A stretch of DNA of 64,000 nt, taken from sequence record PZ386958.1; one strand, written 5' to 3'. Source of the stretch: a phage. The translations under genes were made by a program, and so were the position numbers. Positions 5,437 through 63,778 of this stretch are shown here, piece after piece; the stretch's first letter is position 1, and each line of letters starts with the position of its first letter. The notes beneath the pieces are model-generated. The model saw nothing but the letters and a program-made list of their open reading frames with translations, was not told the origin of the DNA and did no database searches.

Positions 5437-5704
5437 CATCTGGTCAATACACTCGCAAGGTGTACCAGTTCTCTTATGAACTTCTCCGCATTTCTACGGA
5501 GTGTCGGACTATATCACGTAGTAGTAATACTACCGTTGCACTTGGGAATGGTCATTAGCTTACCACCCTACTCTACTCAGTTCATACATTAAGTATGCTT
5601 TTCGATAGTCTCTGAACGTTTCTCTTAAGAGGCTTCGCTGCTGATTACCATATCTTTACAGACTTAGGCTTCCAGCAATTCACAACGTTTTACATGCGCC
5701 ACTG
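5437..5704 (-). ncRNA. Group I self-splicing intron (ORF-less, 268 nt) interrupting the DNA polymerase gene
   Basis: RNA strand contains group I R element GUUCAGAGACUA (plus 5606-5617) and S element GAUAUAGUCC (plus 5505-5514) that can pair as P7; internal guide GCGCAU pairs with 5' exon end AUGCGU (terminal U.G); intron ends in G; removal fuses ...AKNGIYA to LLFGAGDEK in frame. Confidence 0.75.
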
Positions 5705-7877
5705 ACGCATAAATGCCATTTTTGGCTTTCTTACGACCTTTTGTAATCTCGTGGAGAAGTTCCTCATCCTGTGTCTCCCTACAACGAACAATATCTTCTT
5801 CCTTGTTCAGACCAAAGTAAATACTGTTCAGTGTATGCGCATCAGTCCCTGTGTAGACTTCATAGAGGTCGTTCTCAGCATCATAACGAAGATACTTGTC
5901 AGTTTCTGGATTAAGATACTTATCGAGATGCTTGCAATAGTATCTGCCATCATCCTGTTTAGTGAACTCTACAAACTCTTTACCCTCAGTTACTGCTTTA
6001 GTGAACTCTTTATCACCCATAAAGTTACAAAGGAGAACTAGCTGGGCTGAGTTCATATCAACGGAGACTACGTTGGTTCCCTCCTCACAAATCCAAACCT
6101 CCCTCATCGGTGCTCCATAGACAGCAGCACCAGACGGTACGTTTACAATGCCATATTGTGTCATACGTCCAGTTGAAGTACCAAACACCATTGCACCAGC
6201 ACTAAGGCGACCATCAGGACGAATCTGGTTCAACCAACCTTTTTCATCATCCTTTGAGTTCTCAATAGTTCTGCGTCGGTGCATCAAAGTGTAGTATTTA
6301 GCAATCTTCTGTCCAAGCTCACCTTCAATCGTATCATAAGATGATTCAGTAAGTTTTGGTGAAGTACGGATTAAGCAAGGCTCAAGCAAATCTGTGTATT
6401 TCTTCACAGACCAGTTATGCTCAATGTACTGTACACCTTCATGTTCAACATAACTCAAACCACACCGCTCAACCATTTCCTGCCACTTAGGATGTTTTGT
6501 AATCATCTTTTTATTGTCTTTGAAACGACAAACTTTGACAGGACGACCATCTGAGTCTTTCTTGTAGTTCCAGTCATCTGGAATCCAACCAACTGATTTC
6601 AAGTAGTCTTTAACAACGGCTACCTGAGTCATACGAGAAACTTCAAACTCAATTGGTGTATATGGTGCATCAATCAAACCTGTGTAGCGACTTGACTCAA
6701 GTTCAAAGTGGTTAACAACGTGGCTGTTATAGTACTTCACAGTCTTGACTGTTTTTACTGGTTTCCAGTCTTTGCATTTTTTGCCAATCTTTGCATTCAA
6801 CTCGTTGCAGATTGCACGAGCATCCTTCATTGCTACAAAGCCTTCCTTGTATTCTTCACCAGTTACAGTGTTGGTTGGCGTATAGCAATTCCTTTTTTCA
6901 ATGTTAAAAATCTTTGTAGTTGGCTTACCAAATGGCTTGATTTCATATGTCTGCATCTCACCGTTACGTACCTGCTGACGATACTTTGTCTTAGGGTACT
7001 TGGTAATTCTCTTCAGTCCATCTGCGTGACCAAATGCTTCAACATACTCATTCCAAGCTTTTGCAAACTCTTCTCCAGTAACTTTACCTTTGGTCTTAAT
7101 AGTTGGAGGTAGATGTGGTTCAACCTCTGAAGCAAGCTCATTAGTCAACTTGTCAAGTTCCTTTACATGGAACTCCATAAGCTCTTTATCAGCTTTCCAA
7201 CCATTGATAGCTTGTTGACTCATCCAGAAAGATGTTTCTTTAGCTCGCATGTAGGTTTCATAAGTGTCTATGCCACACTTCTTAAGCTTGAGATACTCGT
7301 TATCAAGTGCCCGTTTAGTTTTGGCGTTAATACGGATATCTTCTACAACACGAGTGAAGATTTCTGCATTCCACACACCCCAATGCTCAATCTCTGGCTT
7401 ACGAACACCAACACGAGCACCCCATGCAGCCAAGCCATGAGCACCTTTATAACCCTTTGGAGTTGGTCTATCCATCCACTGAACACGAGACTGAATAAGA
7501 GAATCCTGAAAGAAATTACTCCACGGCTTACATTTTGGATTATCAAAGTTCCATAAATCAGGTGCAATGTGATTGAAAACCCACCAGTCATAGCCGAGAC
7601 CATTATGGATGCAAAGACGTTTTGCCTTTAACGCAAATTCAACACCTTCACGTAAGCCGCCCTTGATGTACTTGGTATACTTGTGACCGAGGATAGGCTC
7701 GTCTGTAAAGACCCATACAGGCGGCTCTTCATCGTCAGATTTATAATCTGCGAAAGCCATTACGTGCACTTTAGTGAACTCAAGGAGTAAACCATCAGTT
7801 TCTGTATCACCAACCAAATGTAAGTTTTTAAAATCTACGTTTTCCATTTTTACTCCCTCTAAAATCATTAACCACAT
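5705..7877 (-). CDS. DNA polymerase (family A, T7 gp5-like), exon 1 (3'-5' exonuclease plus N-terminal polymerase domain)
   Basis: Exo I motif DTETDGL near N-terminus; ends with O-helix RKKAKNGIY (T7: RDNAKTFIYG). The track ORF reads 13 codons into the intron before a stop. Confidence 0.8.
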
Positions 7878-57027: not shown

Positions 57028-57109
57028 TTTTAAAAGGTGTTGACAGACTCTACAAAGTTGCTCTAAAGTCTGTCACATCAACAAACAAAATGAGAGAAGA
57101 GAGTAAAAT

Positions 57110-58486
57110 ATGAGCGAATTATTTAAACATGCGCACCTTCATGCAGGTCGAACTGAAAATGGTGCTGTAAACCATACTTCATCAATGTCTGCTCTTGTAG
57201 ACTTTTACAAAGCTGCTGGTTCAAGCCGTAGCAACGTAGAAATCTTACCAGACCTGTTCTACAAAGCTTTGCGTGAGGATGTTGATGTTGCAGTTCGTAT
57301 TTTGCTTCATATGCGAGATGTGCGAGAAGGTATGGGTGAGCGTAAAGCCTTCAGAACTGTTTTGCTTCAAGCAATTGAAGATAAAGTTTTAGAGCCTACA
57401 CAGGTTCTTCGCATTATGGATAAGATTGCAGAACTTGGTCGTTTTGATGACTTCAAAATCTTCGTAGGTACTCGTTTCGAGACGGATGCCTTCAAACATT
57501 TAGAAGCAGCATTACTAGACCCTGCAACAGCAGGTTTGGCAGCTAAGTGGTTACCACGAGTCAAACCACGTCATAAGCAGTTTGTAAAACGTTTCTGCAA
57601 GTTTGCCAACTTGAGTGAGAAAGAGTACCGCACACTGTTATCTGCACTGTCTGATACAGTTGAGCAAAAAATCTCTGCTAATGAGTTTGGTAAGATTGAC
57701 TACAGCAAGATTCCTTCACTTGCTGCTGCACGTTACCAAAAACTGTTTAACCGTAAAGATGGAGAACGCTACAAAGCTTATATTGAGTCTTTATCAAAAG
57801 GTGAGGCTAAGATTAACGCTGGTGCTGTTTACCCATACGATGTGATTAAGTCTATCAAGCATGGTAATGCAGATGTTGCCAATGAGCAGTGGAAAGCACT
57901 ACCAAACTGGATGGCAGAAGGTGAGAACATCTTGTGTATGACTGATGTTTCAAGCTCAATGTCTTGGGTGAATCTTGGCTCAATCACCGCCCTTGATATT
58001 GGTGTATCACTTGCCTTGTATGTAGCAGAACGCAATACAGGCTGCTTTAAGAATGAGTTAATGGTTTACTCAACAAACCCTCACTTCATCGAACTGAGTG
58101 GTGATTTACGAAATCGTCATCGTCAGGTGATGCGACACGTTGAATATGGTTCAACTAACTTACAAGCAGCTTTTGACCGCATTCTTGAGGTAGGTAAGAG
58201 AAACAACTTGACTCAGAAAGATATGCCAAGTAAGCTTATTATCTTCTCTGATATGGAGTTCAATCAGGTTGATGGTGCAAATGGTCGTACAAACTTTGAA
58301 GCAATTCAGAGTAAGTACAAAAAAGCTGGATACGAAATGCCTCAACTGGTATTCTGGTACTTAGCAAACCGTAATGGTACTTGCGAAGTGTCTGTTAAGG
58401 ATAACGGTGTAGCAATGGTATCAGGGTTCTCTCCAGCCACTTTAAAAGCTCTGCTTGGTGGTGAGAAGTTTGACCAATCAGCGTAA
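57110..58486 (+). CDS. von Willebrand factor A (vWA) domain protein with N-terminal helical domain (possible TROVE/Ro60-like or DUF2828-like)
   Basis: 458 aa; MIDAS motif DVSSS in LCMTDVSSSMSW; N-terminal 270 aa helical; directly upstream of tRNA cluster. Confidence 0.45.
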   Translation: MSELFKHAHLHAGRTENGAVNHTSSMSALVDFYKAAGSSRSNVEILPDLFYKALREDVDVAVRILLHMRDVREGMGERKAFRTVLLQAIEDKVLEPTQVLRIMDKIAELGRFDDFKIFVGTRFETDAFKHLEAALLDPATAGLAAKWLPRVKPRHKQFVKRFCKFANLSEKEYRTLLSALSDTVEQKISANEFGKIDYSKIPSLAAARYQKLFNRKDGERYKAYIESLSKGEAKINAGAVYPYDVIKSIKHGNADVANEQWKALPNWMAEGENILCMTDVSSSMSWVNLGSITALDIGVSLALYVAERNTGCFKNELMVYSTNPHFIELSGDLRNRHRQVMRHVEYGSTNLQAAFDRILEVGKRNNLTQKDMPSKLIIFSDMEFNQVDGANGRTNFEAIQSKYKKAGYEMPQLVFWYLANRNGTCEVSVKDNGVAMVSGFSPATLKALLGGEKFDQSA

Positions 58487-58540: not shown

Positions 58541-58575
58541 TATTGACAATGTGTTTAATACCCTTTAATATGTTC
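58541..58575 (+). promoter_or_regulatory. Promoter-like element (gggtattgacaatgtgtttaataccctttaatatg)
   Basis: TTGACA then TAATAT-like box at appropriate spacing upstream of tRNA cluster. Confidence 0.35.
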
Positions 58576-58689
58576 TACATAGAAACGAAATGAGAGCTTT
58601 TCTAAGATACTGAAAAATATTTTAAAAAAGTTCTTGACAACCACTAAAAAATAATGTTAAAGTGGTTACATAGAGTTTGAAAAGTTTAT

Positions 58690-58766
58690 CTCTGTTTAGC
58701 TCAGCTTGGTAGAGCGTTCCGTTTGGGGCGGTAAGGCCGGAGGTTCAAGTCCTCCAACAGAGACCA
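58690..58766 (+). tRNA. tRNA-Pro (anticodon TGG)
   Basis: Acceptor CTCTGTT/AACAGAG, T-arm GGAGG-TTCAAGT-CCTCC, loop TTTGGGG, 3' CCA encoded. Confidence 0.6.
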
Positions 58767-58773
58767 AATTAAT

Positions 58774-58851
58774 GTTCCAGTAGACAAAATGGTATAGTCA
58801 CCACTCTTTCAAAGTGGATATCTGAGGGTTCAAATCCCTTCTGGAACGCCA
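58774..58851 (+). tRNA. tRNA-Glu (anticodon TTC)
   Basis: Acceptor GTTCCAG/CTGGAAC, anticodon stem CCACT/AGTGG loop CTTTCAA, T-loop TTCAAAT, CCA encoded. Confidence 0.6.
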
Positions 58852-58857
58852 GTTTTG

Positions 58858-58931
58858 ACAGAAGACCAATTACAGCAAACTTAATCTTATTCATCTGAAG
58901 GTAAATCGGACAAAGAAGAGATTTGGTCTGG
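58858..58931 (+). ncRNA. Bracket stem-loop element a (ACAGAAGACCaatTACAGCAA ... tTTGGTCTGG)
   Basis: 5' AGACCAA pairs with 3' TTGGTCT; conserved TACAGCAA; one of four copies with compensatory changes. Confidence 0.45.
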
Positions 58932-58942
58932 TCATTAAGAAT

Positions 58943-59019
58943 TGCGGGTATAGAGAAAGGGCGTCTCACATGTCTCATTAGCATGGTATCGGCAGGTTCG
59001 ACTCCTGCACCCGCCTCCA
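58943..59019 (+). tRNA. tRNA with CAT anticodon (Met or Ile-lysidine)
   Basis: Anticodon stem CATGT/GCATG loop CTCATTA; T-arm GCAGG-TTCGACT-CCTGC; 1-72 mismatch; CCA encoded. Confidence 0.5.
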
Positions 59020-59024
59020 AATTT

Positions 59025-59090
59025 ACAGAAGACCGTTTACAGCAATATTTATTAAATTTTTAGCGGAAAAATTGAAAGATACGGTCTGGT
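59025..59090 (+). ncRNA. Bracket stem-loop element b
   Basis: ACAGAAGACCGTTTACAGCAA ... ACGGTCTGG; AGACCGT pairs with ACGGTCT. Confidence 0.45.
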
Positions 59091-59102
59091 AATACTAAAC
59101 AT

Positions 59103-59179
59103 GGTTAGGAAGCACATAAGGTATGTGCGGTCGCCTGTTAAGCGAATGGCACAGGGTTCGAATCCCTGACTAACCGCCA
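59103..59179 (+). tRNA. tRNA-Asn (anticodon GTT)
   Basis: Loop CTGTTAA; T-arm CAGGG-TTCGAAT-CCCTG; acceptor 3' ACTAACC-G-CCA. Confidence 0.55.
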
Positions 59180-59248
59180 AATTTAGGAGAGAAGCGATTG
59201 CTCACCGATTTGTAAGGTGCAAGTCCTTAGCCTGAATAGAAATTAAAT

Positions 59249-59336
59249 GTGTCGTTATCCCGTAGATGGTAGCGGTGGGGACTGTAAATCCCTTGTCATT
59301 GAGACTCGGTAGGTTCTACTCCTACACGGCACACCA
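59249..59336 (+). tRNA. tRNA-Tyr (anticodon GTA), long variable arm
   Basis: 88 nt; anticodon stem GGGGA/TCCCT loop CTGTAAA; acceptor GTGTCGT/ACGGCAC; CCA encoded. Confidence 0.55.
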
Positions 59337-59341
59337 ATAAA

Positions 59342-59419
59342 GGTTATGTAGTTTAATTTGGTTAAAATACTCCCCTGTCACGGGAGATGATGAGGGTTCA
59401 AATCCCTTCGTAACCGCCA
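59342..59419 (+). tRNA. tRNA-Asp (anticodon GTC)
   Basis: Anticodon stem CTCCC/GGGAG loop CTGTCAC; T-arm GAGGG-TTCAAAT-CCCTT; CCA encoded. Confidence 0.6.
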
Positions 59420-59450
59420 ATTTTGAGAGGGCTATTTAGCCCCTCCCTTA

Positions 59451-59478
59451 AATGGTTCTTACGAGTATCCTTTAAAGG
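59451..59478 (+). ncRNA. Conserved small hairpin GGTTCTTACGAG(T/A)(A/G)TCCTT(T)AAA (copy 1)
   Basis: Second copy at 62447-62474. Confidence 0.3.
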
Positions 59479-59480
59479 AG

Positions 59481-59553
59481 CAGAAGACCAAATACAGCAA
59501 GAACGTATGAAATTTCAAGCCAATTTAATTTTGAAAATTTAAACTTGGTCTGG
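59481..59553 (+). ncRNA. Bracket stem-loop element c
   Basis: CAGAAGACCAAATACAGCAA ... CTTGGTCTGG. Confidence 0.45.
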
Positions 59554-59565
59554 CTCAACAAATTT

Positions 59566-59698
59566 ACAGAAGACCGTCTACAGCAAAACTTAAACAATCT
59601 ATTTCTCCGGTAAAGAAAAGGCGAAGGTTCGATTCCTTCACTCGGCAGATGTCGAGTTGGTGTAATGGTAGCACTTAAGATGATAAACAACGGTCTGG
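59566..59698 (+). ncRNA. Bracket element d enclosing a permuted tRNA-like module (T-arm, acceptor-like hairpin, D-arm); candidate Y-RNA-like ncRNA
   Basis: Closing stem AGACCGT(C)/ACGGTCT; inside: GAAGG-TTCGATT-CCTTC, hairpin ACTCGGC-AGAT-GTCGAGT, then TGGTGTAATGGTAGCAC; no anticodon arm. Confidence 0.45.
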
Positions 59699-59701
59699 TA
59701 A

Positions 59702-59841
59702 TTATCTTTGTAGATAAGTTATTAAGCTTACCTGTGAGTATGCGACCACAAAGGGTGAAAGGGTAAATTCTAGATTTAAACCCAAAAAGGCACATCGCTA
59801 CAGACCTTAAGCAAGTCTGGGTAGCTTATCTACAAAGATAA
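59702..59841 (+). ncRNA. Structured element closed by a perfect 17-bp inverted repeat (TTATCTTTGTAGATAAG / CTTATCTACAAAGATAA)
   Basis: Enclosed ~106 nt has internal hairpins (CAGACCTTAAGCAAGTCTG; AGCTTACC...GGTAGCTT); no ORF. Confidence 0.4.
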
Positions 59842-59847
59842 TTTAAT

Positions 59848-59923
59848 GGAAGTGTAGCAGAATGGTGATGCGGCAGACTTTTAATCTGACAGGCGATGGG
59901 TTCGAATCCCTCCACTTCTACCA
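59848..59923 (+). tRNA. tRNA-Lys (anticodon TTT)
   Basis: Acceptor GGAAGTG/CACTTCT; D-loop AGCAGAATGGTGATGC; loop CTTTTAA; T-loop TTCGAAT; CCA encoded. Confidence 0.55.
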
Positions 59924-59927
59924 AAAT

Positions 59928-60004
59928 GGTTCAGTCGCAGATAAGGTAATGCAGGGGTCTCATAAGCCCTATGAATGTGGGTTCGATTCCCATCTGAACC
60001 TCCA
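59928..60004 (+). tRNA. tRNA with CAT anticodon (second copy; Met or Ile-lysidine)
   Basis: Acceptor GGTTCAG/CTGAACC; anticodon stem GGGGT/GCCCT loop CTCATAA; T-loop TTCGATT; CCA encoded. Confidence 0.5.
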
Positions 60005-60006
60005 AT

Positions 60007-60081
60007 TGTGGGTTAGCATAAATGGTAATGCAAACGGCTGATAACCGTTAGAAGAGGGTTCGATACCCTCACCTACAACCA
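60007..60081 (+). tRNA. tRNA-Ile (anticodon GAT)
   Basis: Anticodon stem AACGG/CCGTT loop CTGATAA; T-arm GAGGG-TTCGATA-CCCTC; CCA encoded. Confidence 0.6.
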
Positions 60082-60095
60082 ATTTCAATAAAGTT

Positions 60096-60130
60096 GTTGA
60101 CATTAAGATGTGACTACTTTATAGTAACCT
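60096..60130 (+). promoter_or_regulatory. Sigma70-like promoter inside tRNA cluster (gttgacattaagatgtgactactttatagtaacc)
   Basis: TTGACA - 17 nt - TATAGT. Confidence 0.5.
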
Positions 60131-60328
60131 TAGTTTTCGTTGCGTAGCGTCTATTTTGCAAATTTAAAATAAATGCAAACGACAATGTTTTTCTGGCAGT
60201 AGCTTGATAGGCTAAACACCAGTGAGGTCTTCCAATCCCTCATCAAAGAATTTGGCGTACTCGCCCACGGTATGATTAATAAGGTGGGCATCTTTAAGGG
60301 CTTTCTAAGAGAGTCTTTAAAGATTAAT

Positions 60329-60403
60329 GCTCCGTTAGTCTAAAGGATAGGCATCTGTCTTCTAAACAGATTGATATAGGTTCGAGTCCTATACGGAGTG
60401 CCA
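60329..60403 (+). tRNA. tRNA-Arg (anticodon TCT)
   Basis: Acceptor GCTCCGT/ACGGAGT; anticodon stem TCTGT/ACAGA loop CTTCTAA; T-loop TTCGAGT; CCA encoded. Confidence 0.6.
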
Positions 60404-60519
60404 TATTTAGAGTGTCTCCAAATGGAGGTGGTCTGTATCTCATGTTTTCCAGAACATGTAAATAATCTGAGAAGGGGCTTTACAGTGTTGAGATAATACG
60501 GTAAGCTTCGAATTATAAT

Positions 60520-60602
60520 ATGGGACGATGTTAAGACTCTAAGGCATGAGCAACGGCTTCCAACACCGTTTCAAAGGGGTTCAACTCCTCCGTCCCATGC
60601 CA
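60520..60602 (+). tRNA. Atypical 83-nt tRNA (possible anticodon CCA, Trp) or tRNA-like gene
   Basis: Acceptor ATGGGAC/GTCCCAT and T-arm AGGGG-TTCAACT-CCTCC clear, CCA encoded; D/anticodon region too long and folds ambiguously. Confidence 0.35.
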
Positions 60603-60615
60603 AAGTCTTATTAGG

Positions 60616-60703
60616 GGTAGGTAGCGGCTAATGGTAGCCAAACTGTCTTGAAAACAGTTGCCACTGTAGAGATACGGTGAGGGTTCGACTCCTTTACTTA
60701 CCG
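60616..60703 (+). tRNA. tRNA-Ser (anticodon TGA), long variable arm; CCA apparently not encoded
   Basis: Anticodon stem ACTGT/ACAGT loop CTTGAAA; long extra arm; T-arm GAGGG-TTCGACT-CCTTT; acceptor 3' ACTTACC-G then CCT. Confidence 0.45.
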
Positions 60704-60859
60704 CCTAATAAGATTTTAAAGCCAAGCTTCATTCGGATGTTGCTTTGGCATCCCTCGTGTTGTCGTACACACTAATAAAGCACCTAGTAGGTGTCATGGA
60801 GAAGAGATAATATCAAGCTCTCCAAAGGTTCTAGTCACCGGATTAAACAAGACTATGCA

Positions 60860-60880
60860 AAGACCAATTTAGGTCTTTTT
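60860..60880 (+). terminator. Hairpin plus T-run (aagaccaatttaggtcttttt)
   Basis: Stem AGACC/GGTCT followed by TTTTT within tRNA cluster. Confidence 0.45.
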
Positions 60881-60959
60881 AGAGGGCTTCTAAGGTTATT
60901 ACAGCTTGTTGTGGAACCTTGTTGCTTAGGTTCTTAGAAGTTCTCTAAAAAGATTTAAT

Positions 60960-61036
60960 GCACCTATAGCCCAACTGGTAGAGGCAGCAGACTTAGAATC
61001 TGCTCAGTGTGAGTTCGAATCTCTCTAGGTGTACCA
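60960..61036 (+). tRNA. tRNA with anticodon TAG (Leu-decoding), short variable arm
   Basis: Acceptor GCACCTA/TAGGTGT; anticodon stem GCAGA/TCTGC loop CTTAGAA; T-loop TTCGAAT; CCA encoded. Confidence 0.45.
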
Positions 61037-61043
61037 AATTAAT

Positions 61044-61119
61044 GCAGGTGTAGCAGAATGGTGATGCGGCTGACTCTTAATCAGTAAGACGATGGGTTCA
61101 ATTCCCTCCACCTGTACCA
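61044..61119 (+). tRNA. tRNA-Lys (anticodon CTT)
   Basis: Paralog of 59848-59923; loop CTCTTAA; acceptor GCAGGTG/CACCTGT; CCA encoded. Confidence 0.55.
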
Positions 61120-61125
61120 AACATT

Positions 61126-61201
61126 GGGGATGTAGTTTACATGGTTAAAACATAAGTTTTGCAAACTTAAGTACAGGGTTCAATTCCCTGCTTCTCCACC
61201 A
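61126..61201 (+). tRNA. tRNA-Ala (anticodon TGC)
   Basis: Anticodon stem TAAGT/ACTTA loop TTTGCAA; G3:U70 wobble in acceptor; T-arm CAGGG-TTCAATT-CCCTG; CCA encoded. Confidence 0.55.
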
Positions 61202-61207
61202 ATTAGT

Positions 61208-61282
61208 GCATCCATAGTTTAAACGGGAAAATTACAGTCTTCCAAACTGAGGTTGAGGGTTCGATTCCCTCTGGATGCTCCA
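61208..61282 (+). tRNA. tRNA-Gly (anticodon TCC)
   Basis: Acceptor GCATCCA/TGGATGC; loop CTTCCAA; T-loop TTCGATT; CCA encoded. Confidence 0.6.
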
Positions 61283-61288
61283 AATAAA

Positions 61289-61365
61289 GCTGCTTTCGTA
61301 TAATTGGCTATTACACATCCCTTGTAAGGATGGAAATGCAGGTTCGAGTCCTGTGAGCAGCACCA
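61289..61365 (+). tRNA. tRNA-Thr (anticodon TGT)
   Basis: Acceptor GCTGCTT/GAGCAGC; anticodon stem CATCC/GGATG loop CTTGTAA; T-loop TTCGAGT; CCA encoded. Confidence 0.6.
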
Positions 61366-61367
61366 AT

Positions 61368-61455
61368 TCAGAGGTCAAGTGAAAGACCGCTGGTGTCAAC
61401 TGAAGACCGTAACAAATTCCACGGAGTTGAGTTAGCGGCACAACTTCAGACCTCT
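61368..61455 (+). ncRNA. Structured non-tRNA element with nested stems (CAGAGGTC...GACCTCT outer stem)
   Basis: Inner pairs TCAACT/AGTTGA and CCGCTG/AGCGG; contains bracket-like GAAGACCG; no ORF. Confidence 0.35.
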
Positions 61456-61460
61456 TTCAC

Positions 61461-61541
61461 ACTCGCTTAGTTTATATGGTAAAACATCACCCTTACAAGA
61501 TGAAGATGAAGAAAAAGGTTCAAGTCCTTTAGTGAGTACCA
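61461..61541 (+). tRNA. tRNA-like gene, atypical (possible anticodon TAC, Val) with enlarged variable region
   Basis: Acceptor ACTCGCT/AGTGAGT, T-arm AAAGG-TTCAAGT-CCTTT, CCA encoded; anticodon stem has a C-A mismatch. Confidence 0.35.
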
Positions 61542-61542
61542 T

Positions 61543-61620
61543 GTTCCAGTATCCCAATTGGCAGAGGATGCAAGCTCAAACCTTGTATTAGTGACGGTTC
61601 GAATCCGTCTTGGAACACCA
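61543..61620 (+). tRNA. tRNA with anticodon CAA (Leu-decoding), short variable arm
   Basis: Acceptor GTTCCAG/TTGGAAC; anticodon stem GCAAG/CTTGT loop CTCAAAC; T-loop TTCGAAT; CCA encoded. Confidence 0.45.
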
Positions 61621-61638
61621 ATTTAAAGAGGCTATTTA

Positions 61639-62196
61639 ATGAGATATTTGAAGTACGCTTCATGGATTTTCTTAGCTTTACTAGACCCAATTGCAGCAAC
61701 CCTAGCAGTTATCTTAGCACCTTTCGTAGTTCCATTCTACAGTGAAAAGAAAGGACACTTACCTTTTGGATTCAGATGGATGGAGACTTATGACAACCCG
61801 ATTGATGGTGATGAAGGCCACGTTAAAAGATGGGCTAAGATTAGAAAGATTGGTAAGCTTGGTGTCTACATGCAGAGAGTTGGATGGCTCTGGAGAAACA
61901 AAGCTTATAACTTCTCTTACCATGTATTAGGAAGAGATGTAAAAGATGTTACTAAGTGGAAAGGTAATATCAACGTAAGTTCTAACCCTGAAGATAATCA
62001 GACTGGTTATCTCCTAATGTGGAACAGTAATGCTTGGGGATTATTCGCTTTTATCCCATCAATTAAAGTCTTTGGTAAACAGTTTTACTGGAGAATTTAT
62101 ATTGGATGGAAACTAAAAAGTGTTGTCCCAGAAGAAAGAGCATTCTCAAGGGAAAGAGTTATGTTGGCATTCTTTATTCATCCACTGAGAAAGTAA
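61639..62196 (+). CDS. Membrane protein embedded in tRNA cluster
   Basis: 185 aa; hydrophobic N-terminus WIFLALLDPIAATLAVILAPFVVPF; flanked by tRNA genes. Confidence 0.45.
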   Translation: MRYLKYASWIFLALLDPIAATLAVILAPFVVPFYSEKKGHLPFGFRWMETYDNPIDGDEGHVKRWAKIRKIGKLGVYMQRVGWLWRNKAYNFSYHVLGRDVKDVTKWKGNINVSSNPEDNQTGYLLMWNSNAWGLFAFIPSIKVFGKQFYWRIYIGWKLKSVVPEERAFSRERVMLAFFIHPLRK

Positions 62197-62204
62197 AGAT
62201 TTAA

Positions 62205-62280
62205 AGGGGATTAGTTTACAAGGTTAAAACCTCGGTCTTTGAAATCGAAGAAGTTGGTTCAATTCCAACATCCCCCGCCA
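62205..62280 (+). tRNA. tRNA-Gln (anticodon TTG)
   Basis: Anticodon stem TCGGT/ATCGA loop CTTTGAA; T-arm GTTGG-TTCAATT-CCAAC; 1-72 mismatch; CCA encoded. Confidence 0.5.
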
Positions 62281-62282
62281 AT

Positions 62283-62361
62283 GCTCCATTACTCCAATTG
62301 GCAGAGAGGCCAGACTTAAAATCTGTGTTATGTATCGGTTCGAATCCGATATGGAGTACCA
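62283..62361 (+). tRNA. tRNA with anticodon TAA (Leu-decoding), short variable arm
   Basis: Acceptor GCTCCAT/ATGGAGT; loop CTTAAAA; T-arm ATCGG-TTCGAAT-CCGAT; CCA encoded. Confidence 0.45.
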
Positions 62362-62366
62362 AATTT

Positions 62367-62442
62367 AGCGGTATAGCATAACTGGCAATGCAGCAGTCTC
62401 TGAAGCTGTCTTATTAAGGTTCAAATCCTTATGCCGCTGCCA
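62367..62442 (+). tRNA. tRNA-Gln (anticodon CTG)
   Basis: Acceptor AGCGGTA/TGCCGCT; loop CTCTGAA; T-arm TAAGG-TTCAAAT-CCTTA; CCA encoded. Confidence 0.5.
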
Positions 62443-62446
62443 CTTC

Positions 62447-62474
62447 TAAGGGTTCTTACGAGAGTCCTTAAATG
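62447..62474 (+). ncRNA. Conserved small hairpin TAAGGGTTCTTACGAGAGTCCTTAAATG (copy 2)
   Basis: Stem TAAGG/CCTTA; same loop as 59451-59478. Confidence 0.3.
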
Positions 62475-62549
62475 TGGCCTTATCATAAATGGTAATGACC
62501 CATGCTGTGAACATGGTCTATACGGGTTCAAATCCCGTAGGTCACCCCA
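62474..62549 (+). tRNA. tRNA-His (anticodon GTG)
   Basis: Acceptor GTGGCCT/AGGTCAC; anticodon stem CCATG/CATGG loop CTGTGAA; T-arm ACGGG-TTCAAAT-CCCGT; CCA encoded. Confidence 0.6.
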
Positions 62550-62554
62550 ATTTA

Positions 62555-62631
62555 TAGTCCAAGTAGCTTATATGGTTAAAGCGCGTGTCTGAAAAACATG
62601 AGAAGAGGGTTCAAATCCCACTGGACTACCA
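62555..62631 (+). tRNA. tRNA-Phe (anticodon GAA)
   Basis: Anticodon stem CGTGT/ACATG loop CTGAAAA; T-loop TTCAAAT; acceptor AGTCCAA/CTGGACT (one mismatch); CCA encoded. Confidence 0.5.
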
Positions 62632-62647
62632 ATTTCAAAGGTGCTTA

Positions 62648-63382
62648 ATGAAAGAGATGACAGAACAAGGTAAGGAGATTTTTAATCTCTTAAAAACCGG
62701 TAGAGGGTTTTCTAATCCCCTTATTACTGGTGCAGCAGTTCTAGGTGGAACCGTGGCTGCCTCTACATCACTTGTAAGCTCTATTAGCTCTGTAACAGAC
62801 CCTACAATAAAGGATAAACTTATTGCTGCTGGACTTACAACAGTTCTGCTTAATAGCTTTACAACGAGTCTGACAAGCACTACATCAACTACTAAGACCC
62901 TAACAGACTATGGTCAAAAGTCTATTGATGAGTTTTCATCACGTATGCAGGTAGCAAAGGGATACTCCAATGTTATGGGTGCAGCAGGAGAACAAGTCGG
63001 TTGTACACCATTCAGTGGTATTATGGGTGTTGCTACAGAGTATGGTCAAAAAGCTATTGATATGATTAACAGTGCACTAGACGGTGTTAATGATGTATTA
63101 AGTGACTTACAAGACGCTATTGACAAAGGTCTTGATACTATTTCTGATTTAGCTAACCAAGCTGTTAGTAAGATTAATGAAGGTATCTCGAAGATTACAG
63201 CTTATGCAGATGAAGTTGTGCAGATGATTGAAGAAGAAGCTGCCCTTATTGCAGAGTACCTTAAAACGAATATCAATGGGTTCTTAGCAGGTATCTTACC
63301 AGACTGGTTTGATGATGCTTGTAAAACTGGTGTAATTGATACTATTGCAACACCAGAAATGAAGAACGCATTACAGAAATAA
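62648..63382 (+). CDS. Hypothetical protein embedded in tRNA cluster (Ser/Thr-rich N-terminal region)
   Basis: Start MKEMTEQGKE chosen downstream of tRNA-Phe (track ORF 62585 would overlap the tRNA); about 244 aa. Confidence 0.45.
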   Translation: MKEMTEQGKEIFNLLKTGRGFSNPLITGAAVLGGTVAASTSLVSSISSVTDPTIKDKLIAAGLTTVLLNSFTTSLTSTTSTTKTLTDYGQKSIDEFSSRMQVAKGYSNVMGAAGEQVGCTPFSGIMGVATEYGQKAIDMINSALDGVNDVLSDLQDAIDKGLDTISDLANQAVSKINEGISKITAYADEVVQMIEEEAALIAEYLKTNINGFLAGILPDWFDDACKTGVIDTIATPEMKNALQK

Positions 63383-63383
63383 T

Positions 63384-63476
63384 GGAAGATTAACCCTAAA
63401 AGGTAAGGGAGCAGTTTGCTAAACTGCCAGTAGCTGAGAAATCGGTGTACCAGTTCAAGTCTGGTATCTTCCTCCA
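63384..63476 (+). tRNA. tRNA-Ser (anticodon GCT), long variable arm
   Basis: Acceptor GGAAGAT/ATCTTCC; anticodon stem GCAGT/ACTGC loop TTGCTAA; long extra arm; T-arm ACCAG-TTCAAGT-CTGGT; CCA encoded. Confidence 0.55.
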
Positions 63477-63480
63477 ATTT

Positions 63481-63556
63481 GAATCCGTGACAGAAATGGC
63501 TATGTGCCTGTCTGCAAAACAGGTTTATAAGGGTTCGAGTCCCTTCGGATTCTCCA
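63481..63556 (+). tRNA. tRNA-Cys (anticodon GCA)
   Basis: Acceptor GAATCCG/CGGATTC (perfect); anticodon stem CCTGT/ACAGG loop CTGCAAA; T-arm AAGGG-TTCGAGT-CCCTT; CCA encoded. Confidence 0.6.
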
Positions 63557-63653: not shown

Positions 63654-63778
63654 ACAGAGTTATACTTTATAGGAAGACTTATACAGTATGTCTCTGACGT
63701 ACATTGTGGTTTCTCCTTGACGGTCTCTGTGCCGTCTTTTTTAAGGGGAAACAATATTAATTATTTGGAGAAAACATA

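Follow-up and report, generated by a model that had tools for sequence, protein, structure and literature searches.

The phage sequence PZ386958.1, analysed here as one stretch of 64,000 nucleotides (nt) and referred to below as the window, carries a dense cluster of tRNA genes at positions 58690–63556, and the question raised by this locus is what the longer spacers between these genes encode. Judged from its sequence the window is that of a Felixounavirus (Felix O1-like phage), and its tRNA cluster is one that had been described and annotated before. The spacing between tRNA genes is mostly 1–7 nt, apart from nine spacers of 69–428 nt. The initial annotation had recorded non-tRNA structured elements within the cluster and gave no identity for them; such elements are present, and they sit in the nine longer spacers. 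Four of them, named E1 to E4, are described below as a family of Y-RNA-like RNAs, and the reading that we favour, and hold to be likely, is that of a Felixounavirus tRNA island whose four spacer RNAs partner a Ro60-like protein encoded just upstream. Another spacer RNA, located behind an internal promoter, resembles transfer-messenger RNA (tmRNA). All features lie on the plus strand of the window unless stated otherwise.

Four Related RNAs in the Spacers of the tRNA Island

The 20-nt sequence CAGAAGACC-NNN-UACAGCAA was found in four copies (at 58859, 59026, 59481 and 59567) and nowhere else in the 64 kb, with 0.04 occurrences expected by chance. Each copy is answered 40–110 nt downstream by NNN′-GGUCUGG, and the four elements share one fold, the outer and inner helices of which covary. 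The outer helix of 4 base pairs (bp) varies in sequence yet remains paired (UGAC/GUCA, UUAC/GUAA, GAGC/GCUC); it is followed by an asymmetric 3 × 1 internal loop, in which a 3-nt AGA bulge faces a single G, by an inner helix of 7 bp with a covarying inner triplet (CAA/UUG or CGU/ACG), and then by the unpaired UACAGCAA. The 5′ strand of the basal helix is followed, on its inner side, by a conserved single-stranded U(A/U)CAGCAA.

Three of the elements are short Y-RNA-like RNAs of 72–81 nt. E1 (58856–58936) shows the helix UGAC/GUCA, the bulges AGA (5′) and G (3′), the helix AGACCAA/UUGGUCU and the single-stranded UUACAGCAA; E2 (59023–59094) has UUAC/GUAA, AGACCGU/ACGGUCU and UUACAGCAA, and E3 (59478–59558) has GAGC/GCUC, AGACCAA/UUGGUCU and AUACAGCAA. 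The fourth element, E4 (59564–59703), is YrlA-like and contains, after the basal helix and CUACAGCAA, a permuted tRNA-like module composed of a T arm at 59623–59639 (GAAGGUUCGAUUCCUUC), an acceptor-like hairpin at 59640–59657 (ACUCG...CGAGU) and a D arm at 59660–59674 (GUGUAAUGGUAGCAC), the whole being closed by a long basal stem. The same order of T arm, acceptor-like stem-loop and D arm, closed by a long basal stem, has been described for bacterial YrlA RNAs (PMC4201824).

A different pairing, in which a Y stem would enclose a tRNA (GGUCUGG...tRNA-Met...CAGAAGACC), was rejected, as the triplets CAA/UUG and CGU/ACG covary within each element and not between neighbours. The structured spacer 61366–61460, which contains CUGAAGACCGUAACAAAU (folding z = −3.0), is possibly a decayed fifth copy; it gave no match with the covariance model R1 introduced below.

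The Ro60-like Protein Gene

E1–E4 are located 370–1220 nt downstream of a gene on the same strand (57110–58486), the product of which is the ortholog of Bas63 gp130 and falls in phrog_850 ("RNA-binding protein") of PHROGs. Pfam recognizes in it the domains DUF2828 and DUF7788 only. The initial annotation had drawn no connection between the tRNA cluster and this gene. A model of the protein predicted with AlphaFold from 35 homologs (predicted local distance difference test, pLDDT, 85.5) was compared with the PDB using Foldseek, and the top 11 matches were all Ro60/Rsr chains (E-values 1e-8 to 3.5e-7, template modelling (TM) scores 0.50–0.67), among them Xenopus Ro60, Deinococcus Rsr and the Ro60 of Thermus phage phiLo. 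The predicted structure combines a HEAT-repeat ring with a von Willebrand A (vWA) fold, and the residues D279, S281 and S283 of the MIDAS motif (for metal ion-dependent adhesion site) of the latter, DxSxS, are invariant among the 35 homologs. No Ro60 match was obtained when PDB chains were searched with phmmer and with a profile of the family, and no TROVE match was found in Pfam.

Homologs of this protein are present in 710 phage records, and those of mycobacteriophages bear the annotation "Ro-like RNA binding protein". Bas63 gp130 has been reported as structurally similar to Ro60 and as counteracting the Ppl defence system, and the authors of that work guessed that "some tRNA genes are possibly Y RNAs" (PhageMaP preprint, PMC11482910). 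E1–E4 are concrete, testable candidates for the RNA partners of a gp130-type protein, and they are located in the spacers rather than in annotated tRNAs.

In relatives the Ro60-like protein has 471 amino acids and starts 39 nt further upstream. The corresponding extension in the window (57071–57112) holds an in-frame TAA, and the open reading frame (ORF) is therefore taken to start at 57110 and to encode 458 amino acids.

The Helix and CAGCAA Family in Other Phages

To follow the elements outside the close relatives, 80 loci around distant relatives of the Ro-like gene were fetched, mostly with 38–48% protein identity, and the family statistics were obtained from 71 distinct loci with a Ro-like protein below 60% identity. 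The Felix-type motif in its exact form (CAGAAGACC / GGTCTGG) did not occur in the 80 loci, which lie outside the close relatives, and the family was detected only once the search was relaxed to any helix followed by CAGCAA, which is its invariant motif. The same architecture then appeared with other helices: a Yersinia phage has GGACUGU-UUACAGCAA...ACAGUCC, for example, and metagenomic phages have AGGAUGC-AUACAGCAA...GCAUCCU. In the 71 loci, 87 elements with a helix of at least 6 bp followed by [A/U]CAGCAA were counted on the strand of the gene and no more than 1 kb away from it, against 6.7 ± 2.1 in dinucleotide shuffles. Their density there was 0.64 per kb, as compared with 0.13 for the other strand and 0.07–0.10 farther off, and at least one element was present in 49 of the 71 distant loci.

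The elements occur as tandem sets of short and long forms; a T loop was found in 32 of 63 long forms and in none of 64 short forms. Mycobacteriophage LeBron has three tandem copies after its Ro-like gene, the middle one being tRNA-like, and Listeria phage LMTA-57 has three copies before its DUF2828 gene, with a gene for an RtcB ligase 1.3 kb downstream. Arrays of tRNA genes follow the DUF2828 gene in about 30 of the 80 loci. A third class of helix and CAGCAA element, 230–260 nt long and about 140–530 nt downstream of the gene, was observed in the loci L009, L010, L013–L015, L019, L022 and L057; it has no T loop, but it carries, immediately ahead of the basal helix's 3′ strand, a conserved ...ACGAA(C/A)A... 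that recalls the CGAA of canonical Y RNAs.

When 21 tRNA-like members were aligned, RNAalifold predicted the basal helix, the T arm and the acceptor-like (AS) helix unaided. The proportion of paired cells in this alignment was 89.8% as compared with 58.4% in shuffles, none of 500 shuffles reaching that value, and the covariation score was 0.69 as compared with 0.21 in shuffles and at most 0.17 in slid registers. All 7 basal pairs change on both sides, and so do all seven pairs of the acceptor-like helix, which had played no role in the selection of the sequences.

Covariance models were built exclusively from phages outside the Ounavirinae, as a guard against circularity: R1 from 26 short elements and R2 from 14 tRNA-like elements. 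With filters off and both strands of the 64-kb window searched, the best three matches of R1 were E2 (40.0 bits, E 3.6e-7), E1 (33.1 bits, E 1.8e-5) and E3 (26.2 bits, E 8.7e-4), the next match having an E-value of 0.3. E4 was matched by R2 over its full length with 62.9 bits (E 8.6e-11), and no genuine tRNA gene scored above 21.3 bits with this model. In 1.0 Mb of DUF2828 loci R1 gave 57 matches, all of them on the strand of the gene, and in 0.82 Mb of other viral contigs it gave 6 matches, all in two Felixounavirus contigs.

These results bear on a rival explanation of the spacers, namely that they serve to space the tRNAs and nothing else, being made up of hairpins for processing or termination and of tRNA remnants in decay after duplication and loss. 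Debris of this kind does occur, for example the T-arm-like sequence at 59215–59244, as do long hairpins to which no role can be assigned, and the spacer content differs among relatives, with insertions that include homing endonuclease genes. Against this, the E motif stands beside DUF2828 genes also in loci without tRNA genes (e.g., L010, L013–L015, L019 and L022), the helix and CAGCAA element is enriched 13-fold over shuffles in a strand-specific manner with covarying helices, and models derived from Listeria, Mycobacterium and metagenomic phages recover the copies of the window. We regard spacing debris as a highly unlikely account of E1–E4.

The location of the elements raises the further possibility that they are cis sites in the mRNA of the Ro60-like gene, that is, autoregulatory operators or stabilisers bound by the protein, and not free-standing partners. 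In the distant phages they are found directly upstream or downstream of the gene and on the same strand, often at 80–500 nt, as would fit a 5′ or 3′ untranslated region. The elements of the window are, in contrast, parted from the gene and from each other by tRNAs due for excision; one copy per phage typically has a complete tRNA-like module, as YrlA has, and the presence of several copies in tandem at one locus recalls how yrlB-yrlA and Yrn1/2 are arranged. Cis sites in place of free RNAs appear improbable to us, and the two readings are not mutually exclusive.

Several observations weigh against the interpretation of E1–E4 as Y-RNA-like partners of the Ro60-like protein. No curated Rfam model matches E1–E4, so that Y RNA membership is unconfirmed by a model; a search of 58852–59710 against Rfam 15 at E ≤ 5 returned no family besides a weak tRNA match (22 bits). 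The protein is Ro60-like by its predicted fold (TM 0.5–0.67) and not as a sequence-level TROVE member. The motif U(A/U)CAGCAA differs from the known Ro-binding motifs, which are GNCGAAN0-1G in YrlA and GGUCCGA in animal Y RNAs (PMC4201824), and binding is argued from linkage and architecture. In 22 of the 71 distant loci there is no element within 1 kb of the gene. Lastly, the first motif scan demanded a helix, which makes its helix statistics partly circular, a point that is addressed by the shuffle controls, by the covariation of the AS helix and by the cross-trained models. As the Ro-binding motif is absent and the protein is no sequence-level TROVE member, the E family is not filed here among proven Y RNAs; it is a family that would work like the Ro60–Y RNA pair, with the architecture of YrlA and YrlB and without the published Ro-binding motif. 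Searches of the literature gave no description of the E elements; overlap with the YrlA set of Chen et al. 2014 could not be checked.

A Model for E1–E4

The observations, which comprise the sequence family, the structure of its members and a tight linkage, specific to one strand, with the gene of a Ro60-fold protein, suggest the following course of processing, binding and function. E1–E4 would be part of the tRNA transcript, and the enzymes that cut out the flanking tRNAs, RNase P and those of 3′ processing, would free the elements and fix their ends; E1, for example, would measure about 91 nt, beginning where tRNA-Glu ends and reaching to the RNase P site of tRNA-Met. By analogy with Ro60, which binds a bulged helix and its 5′ strand, E1–E4 are probably bound by the Ro60-like protein encoded upstream, at the bulged helix and CAGCAA. 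The tRNA-like module of E4 may recruit tRNA-handling enzymes or act as a decoy, and the resulting particles may act in the surveillance of RNA or tRNA and against host defence. An output of this type, surveillance of RNA or tRNA tied to evasion of defence, is probable in view of what gp130 does against Ppl, of the tRNA arrays that often follow DUF2828 genes and of the RtcB neighbour in the Listeria phage.

No entry for the helix and CAGCAA RNA was found in Rfam 15, and no account of it in the literature searched; the elements define an RNA family with a new conserved motif, and this family accompanies the DUF2828 Ro60-like protein in phages that infect Enterobacteria, Vibrio-type marine hosts, Listeria and Mycobacterium.

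The tmRNA-like RNA Behind the Internal Promoter

An internal sigma70-like promoter had been proposed in the initial annotation, and the sequence TTGACA-17-TATAGT at 60097–60125, after tRNA-Ile, bears this out: it matches the consensus at 11 of 12 positions and is invariant in three genera (Felixounavirus, Suspvirus and Mooglevirus). An RNA of about 160 nt (60131–60289) begins 6 nt past its −10 box, and in Erwinia phage Pistou a promoter-like site is located at an equal distance from the corresponding element. The RNA was recognized as tmRNA-like by a conserved frame and by Rfam scores of 33.3 bits for tmRNA_permuted and 15.9 bits for tmRNA, both below the gathering score of 47. It is composed of a 5′ box UAGUUUUCGUUG (60131–60142), a tag frame GCA..UGA (60175–60207), a hairpin bearing the stop codon of the tag (60193–60222), a second hairpin (60222–60243), a box AAUUUGGCGUA (60249–60259) and a hairpin with a conserved loop (60263–60289); a further hairpin (60290–60324) lies between it and tRNA-Arg.

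The core of the RNA reads AAAAUAAAU-GCA-AAC-GAC-AAU-GUU-UUU-CUG-GCA-GUA-GCU-UGA, which without a start codon would encode ANDNVFLAVA*. The corresponding part of Escherichia coli ssrA is AAAAAUAGUC-GCA-AAC-GAC-GAA-AAC-UAC-GCU-UUA-GCA-GCU-UAA (ANDENYALAA), as verified in 5426 of 5426 E. coli genomes. The tmRNA-like element was detected by blastn in 659 phage records, including Ounavirinae, Ackermannviridae, the N4-like St11Ph5, Erwinia Kolesnikvirus, and Klebsiella and Escherichia siphoviruses, and it is annotated in none among the 30 matches listed.

One interpretation would be that the RNA is not translated, being either a relic, without function, of an ssrA fragment that was captured, or a structured leader of tRNA-Arg of the ordinary kind. 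This reading agrees with the Rfam scores and with a predicted fold in which the first part of the frame is paired to the 5′ box. It also agrees with the missing tRNA-like domain: the RNA has no G3-U70 acceptor stem, T arm or encoded 3′ CCA, a T-loop scan of the cluster outside the tRNA genes detected only E4 and the tRNA-Trp-like gene described below, and ARAGORN in tmRNA mode reported none in the window or in five other phages. The substitution pattern speaks otherwise. In 41 copies from unrelated phage families (22 distinct DNA variants, 12 tags, among them ANDNVFLAVA, ANDEQFLAVA, ANEEMYLAVA, ANDDVVLMAA and ANDDLMLMAA) the frame is always 10 codons and a stop. The summed entropies at codon positions 1, 2 and 3 of the tag frame variants are 5.4, 4.1 and 9.6 bits, the third position being about twice as variable, and within lineages there are synonymous changes and swaps of the stop among TAA, TGA and TAG, the other two frames not being kept. 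The hairpins downstream of the frame covary. A decaying relic is the sober alternative and fits this pattern poorly; a relic or leader is considered rather unlikely. The pattern is the signature of a translated tag, translation itself being inferred from these sequence comparisons.

The box at the 5′ end includes UAGUUUUCGU, the exact reverse complement of ssrA nt 96–105 (ACGAAAACUA, within GAC-GAA-AAC-UAC). RNAduplex put the first 26 nt at the 5′ end on ssrA nt 74–110 for 20 of 24 phage variants, at energies that only modestly beat those of shuffles (50/500 and 6/500 shuffles equal them). Because the energies are near those of shuffles, the antisense idea is founded on the exact 10-nt match and on the consistent position, not on energy. 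It is tentatively proposed, as one possibility, that the RNA 60131–60289 pairs with the host tmRNA via its 5′ box and blocks or replaces the tag template, rescued proteins then receiving ANDNVFLAVA and not ANDENYALAA. If translated, the RNA would be the first tag template without a tRNA-like domain of its own and would point to phage manipulation of ribosome rescue.

Two arrangements in other phages were observed beside this element. In Erwinia phage Pistou (L095, 394–560) the promoter of the tmRNA-like element is immediately preceded by an unannotated RNA of about 170 nt, the ends of which resemble the tRNA-like domain of tmRNA; it starts with GGGUGAUUCUG... (E. coli ssrA starts with GGGGCUGAUUCUG), and at its other end AAUCACUC-G-CCA comes after a T arm. 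No homolog of this RNA was found in the window. In siphoviruses and N4-like phages (L091, L092 and about 15 IMG/VR loci, e.g., L119, L121, L132 and L155) the element lies inside an array of unannotated RNAs, and in these arrays each RNA starts with a box AGUGCUCUUUCC and is parted from the next by a tRNA-like GGUAAGAGCAYUG...T arm...CAGUGCUCUUUCC. A closing helix between AGUGCUCUUUCC and GGUAAGAGCAYUG in these other phages was considered and rejected, since in phage Carvaje the 3′ strand fits the downstream copy of the box better than it fits the upstream copy.

The tRNA Gene Set

ARAGORN called 25 tRNA genes at 58690–63556, all on the plus strand, and inspection of their structures showed a cloverleaf with an anticodon. 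The initial annotation had counted about 26 tRNA-like genes for at least 18 amino acids; the 25 genes account for 19 amino acids, and the 26th, a non-canonical tRNA-Trp-like gene missed by ARAGORN and Rfam, brings the number to 20. The whole set of 20 amino acids would be covered by the island if the Trp-like gene is functional. The covariance model RF00005 rejects two of the 25 at its gathering score, tRNA-Met(CAU) (58943–59019), which has a U1-C72 mismatch and is annotated as tRNA-Met in relatives, and tRNA-Tyr(GUA) (59249–59336), a tRNA in relatives that is flagged as a pseudogene in some public records; the other 23 are supported by both programs, tRNA-Ser(UGA) (60616–60705) clearing the threshold narrowly with 33.2 bits.

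In order along the island, the genes before the internal promoter are tRNA-Pro(UGG) (58690–58766), tRNA-Glu(UUC) (58774–58851), the tRNA-Met mentioned, tRNA-Asn(GUU) (59103–59179), the tRNA-Tyr mentioned, tRNA-Asp(GUC) (59342–59419), tRNA-Lys(UUU) (59848–59923), a second tRNA-Met/CAU with an anticodon stem GGG/CCC (59928–60004) and tRNA-Ile(GAU) (60007–60081). They are followed by tRNA-Arg(UCU) (60329–60403), the tRNA-Ser(UGA) already given, tRNA-Leu(UAG) (60960–61036), tRNA-Lys(CUU) (61044–61119), tRNA-Ala(UGC) (61126–61201), tRNA-Gly(UCC) (61208–61282), tRNA-Thr(UGU) (61289–61365), tRNA-Val(UAC) (61461–61541) and tRNA-Leu(CAA) (61543–61620), and, farther on, by tRNA-Gln(UUG) (62205–62280), tRNA-Leu(UAA) (62283–62361), tRNA-Gln(CUG) (62367–62442), tRNA-His(GUG) (62474–62549), tRNA-Phe(GAA) (62556–62631), tRNA-Ser(GCU) (63384–63476) and tRNA-Cys(GCA) (63481–63556). 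The duplicated species that had been noted are seen in these calls as Lys (UUU, CUU), Gln (UUG, CUG), Ser (UGA, GCU) and two CAT genes, together with three Leu anticodons (UAG, CAA, UAA). The 3′ CCA, described earlier as almost universal, is encoded in 24 of the 25 genes, the exception being tRNA-Ser(UGA), which ends ...GCC|U.

The G+C content of the window is 38.5%. In its ORFs AGA makes up 28% of Arg codons, UUA 24% and CUA 11% of Leu codons, and CCA, ACA and GCA make up 53%, 38% and 43% within their own families. The A-ending codons favoured by the ORFs are those read by the encoded U34 anticodons, which fits the previous suggestion of compensation for codon usage, made there beside that of a possible role against tRNA-targeting host defences; the tRNAs of the island would decode the A-ending codons preferred by an AT-rich phage. 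In the close relative Bas63 the tRNAs were mostly non-essential on laboratory strains in the PhageMaP study (PMC11482910).

The unannotated tRNA-Trp-like gene (60520–60602) was identified by folding and conservation; Rfam returned nothing for it even at E ≤ 5. It has an acceptor stem AUGGGAC/GUCCCAU followed by G-CCA, an anticodon loop UUCCAAC with the anticodon CCA, a C31-A39 mismatch and a conserved insertion of about 8 nt, GAUGUUAAGA, between the acceptor and a short D stem. Suspvirus, Mooglevirus and Yersinia phage P778 retain the gene, and in the latter two it shows compensatory changes.

Other Features of the Island and the Window

Two long hairpins are each located immediately upstream of a tRNA. 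That at 59700–59843 has 22-nt arms with 95% complementarity (folding z = −6.3) and is absent from some relatives, in which the matches end before it; it may be a separable, possibly mobile module, or a site for RNase III. The other, at 60869–60958, directly before tRNA-Leu, has 26-nt arms (folding z = −6.1). A small hairpin with a UACG tetraloop, GGUUCU-UACG-AG(U/A)(A/G)UCC, is repeated in two spacers (59459–59480 and 62447–62470), and a similar UACG hairpin occurs in spacers of Erwinia and Yersinia phages; it is possibly a processing signal.

Upstream of the cluster there are two candidate sigma70-like promoters that match the consensus, TTGACA-17-TAATAT at 58543–58571 and TTGACA-18-TAAAGT with a TG at 58634–58663, 27 nt before tRNA-Pro. 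The promoter scan as a whole showed no enrichment (14 sites, 12.2 in shuffles), and of the promoter-like sites only that at 60097 is backed by conservation. A hairpin with a T run resembling an intrinsic terminator (63719–63742) closes the cluster after tRNA-Cys. The island would be read rightward from sigma70-type promoters (58543/58634 and 60097) to this terminator at 63719.

The two protein genes that had been reported as embedded in the cluster are both real and belong to conserved phage families. The gene at 61639–62196 encodes a DUF7338 protein (phrog_2143), which is hydrophobic at its N-terminus and which some records call "holin" or "membrane protein", and that at 62648–63382 a DUF7217 protein (phrog_2114), as assigned with Pfam and PHROGs. 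Elsewhere in the window, a group I catalytic intron is matched on the minus strand at 5484–5767 (Rfam RF00028, 63.3 bits, gathering score 50).

Comparison with Known Systems

The closest relatives of the island are other clusters of the same type. At least 80% of the region is spanned by 242 records, the best-matching ones with 95–97% nucleotide identity, and the relatives of the 5-kb region include Felix O1, Bas63/JohannRWettstein, finno and Mushroom, in which the tRNA order and the two ORFs are identical. The tRNA clusters of Felix O1 and other Felixounavirus and Ounavirinae phages have the same gene order, the two embedded ORFs and the upstream gene for an "RNA-binding protein"; no substantive difference was found, and the window is a member of this group. 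In seven public Felix O1-like records that were inspected, the spacer RNAs and the Trp-like gene are annotated in none, and some Felix O1-like records place small, probably spurious ORFs on the spacer RNAs.

The RNA at 60131–60289 shares with tmRNA (ssrA, including the two-piece permuted form) the context of the resume codon, AAAAUAAAU-GCA-AAC-GA, a start-less tag frame of about 10 codons with a hydrophobic-Ala end, and a stop codon placed inside a hairpin that is followed by structured hairpins. It differs in having no tRNA-like domain, acceptor stem, T loop or CCA, in its length (363 nt in E. coli ssrA), and in its 5′ box antisense to the tag codons of the host tmRNA.

Small stable RNAs are also held by the tRNA cluster of phage T4 (species 1 and 2, or band C and D RNAs), which are non-tRNA structured RNAs co-transcribed and co-processed with the phage tRNAs. 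To our knowledge, no Ro60-like protein is linked to them.

The YrlA and YrlB RNAs that accompany Rsr in Salmonella, in Deinococcus (Yrn1) and in mycobacteriophages (PMC4201824) resemble E1–E4 in their tandem copies beside a Ro60-type gene on the same strand, and in a basal helix that joins the 5′ and 3′ ends and whose 5′ side bears a conserved motif. E4 shares with YrlA the order (V)-T arm-acceptor-like stem-loop-D arm, and E1–E3 are short and without this module, as is YrlB. The window differs in its motif, which is U(A/U)CAGCAA in place of GNCGAAN0-1G, in a partner that is a DUF2828/DUF7788 protein and not a sequence-recognisable TROVE protein, and in having the RNAs interleaved with real tRNA genes. 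Thermus phage phiLo (PMC12135203; PDB 9KOP, 9L5Y) likewise encodes a Ro60-fold protein, one of the best fold matches of the window protein, beside two Y-RNA-like genes, Yrl1 and Yrl2; its Yrls had been identified from a CGAA motif lying within a large internal bulge, whereas the motif and the protein family of the window are both different. The partnership between Ro60 and Y RNA would, with E1–E4, extend to a second protein family, one that is unrecognisable by sequence.

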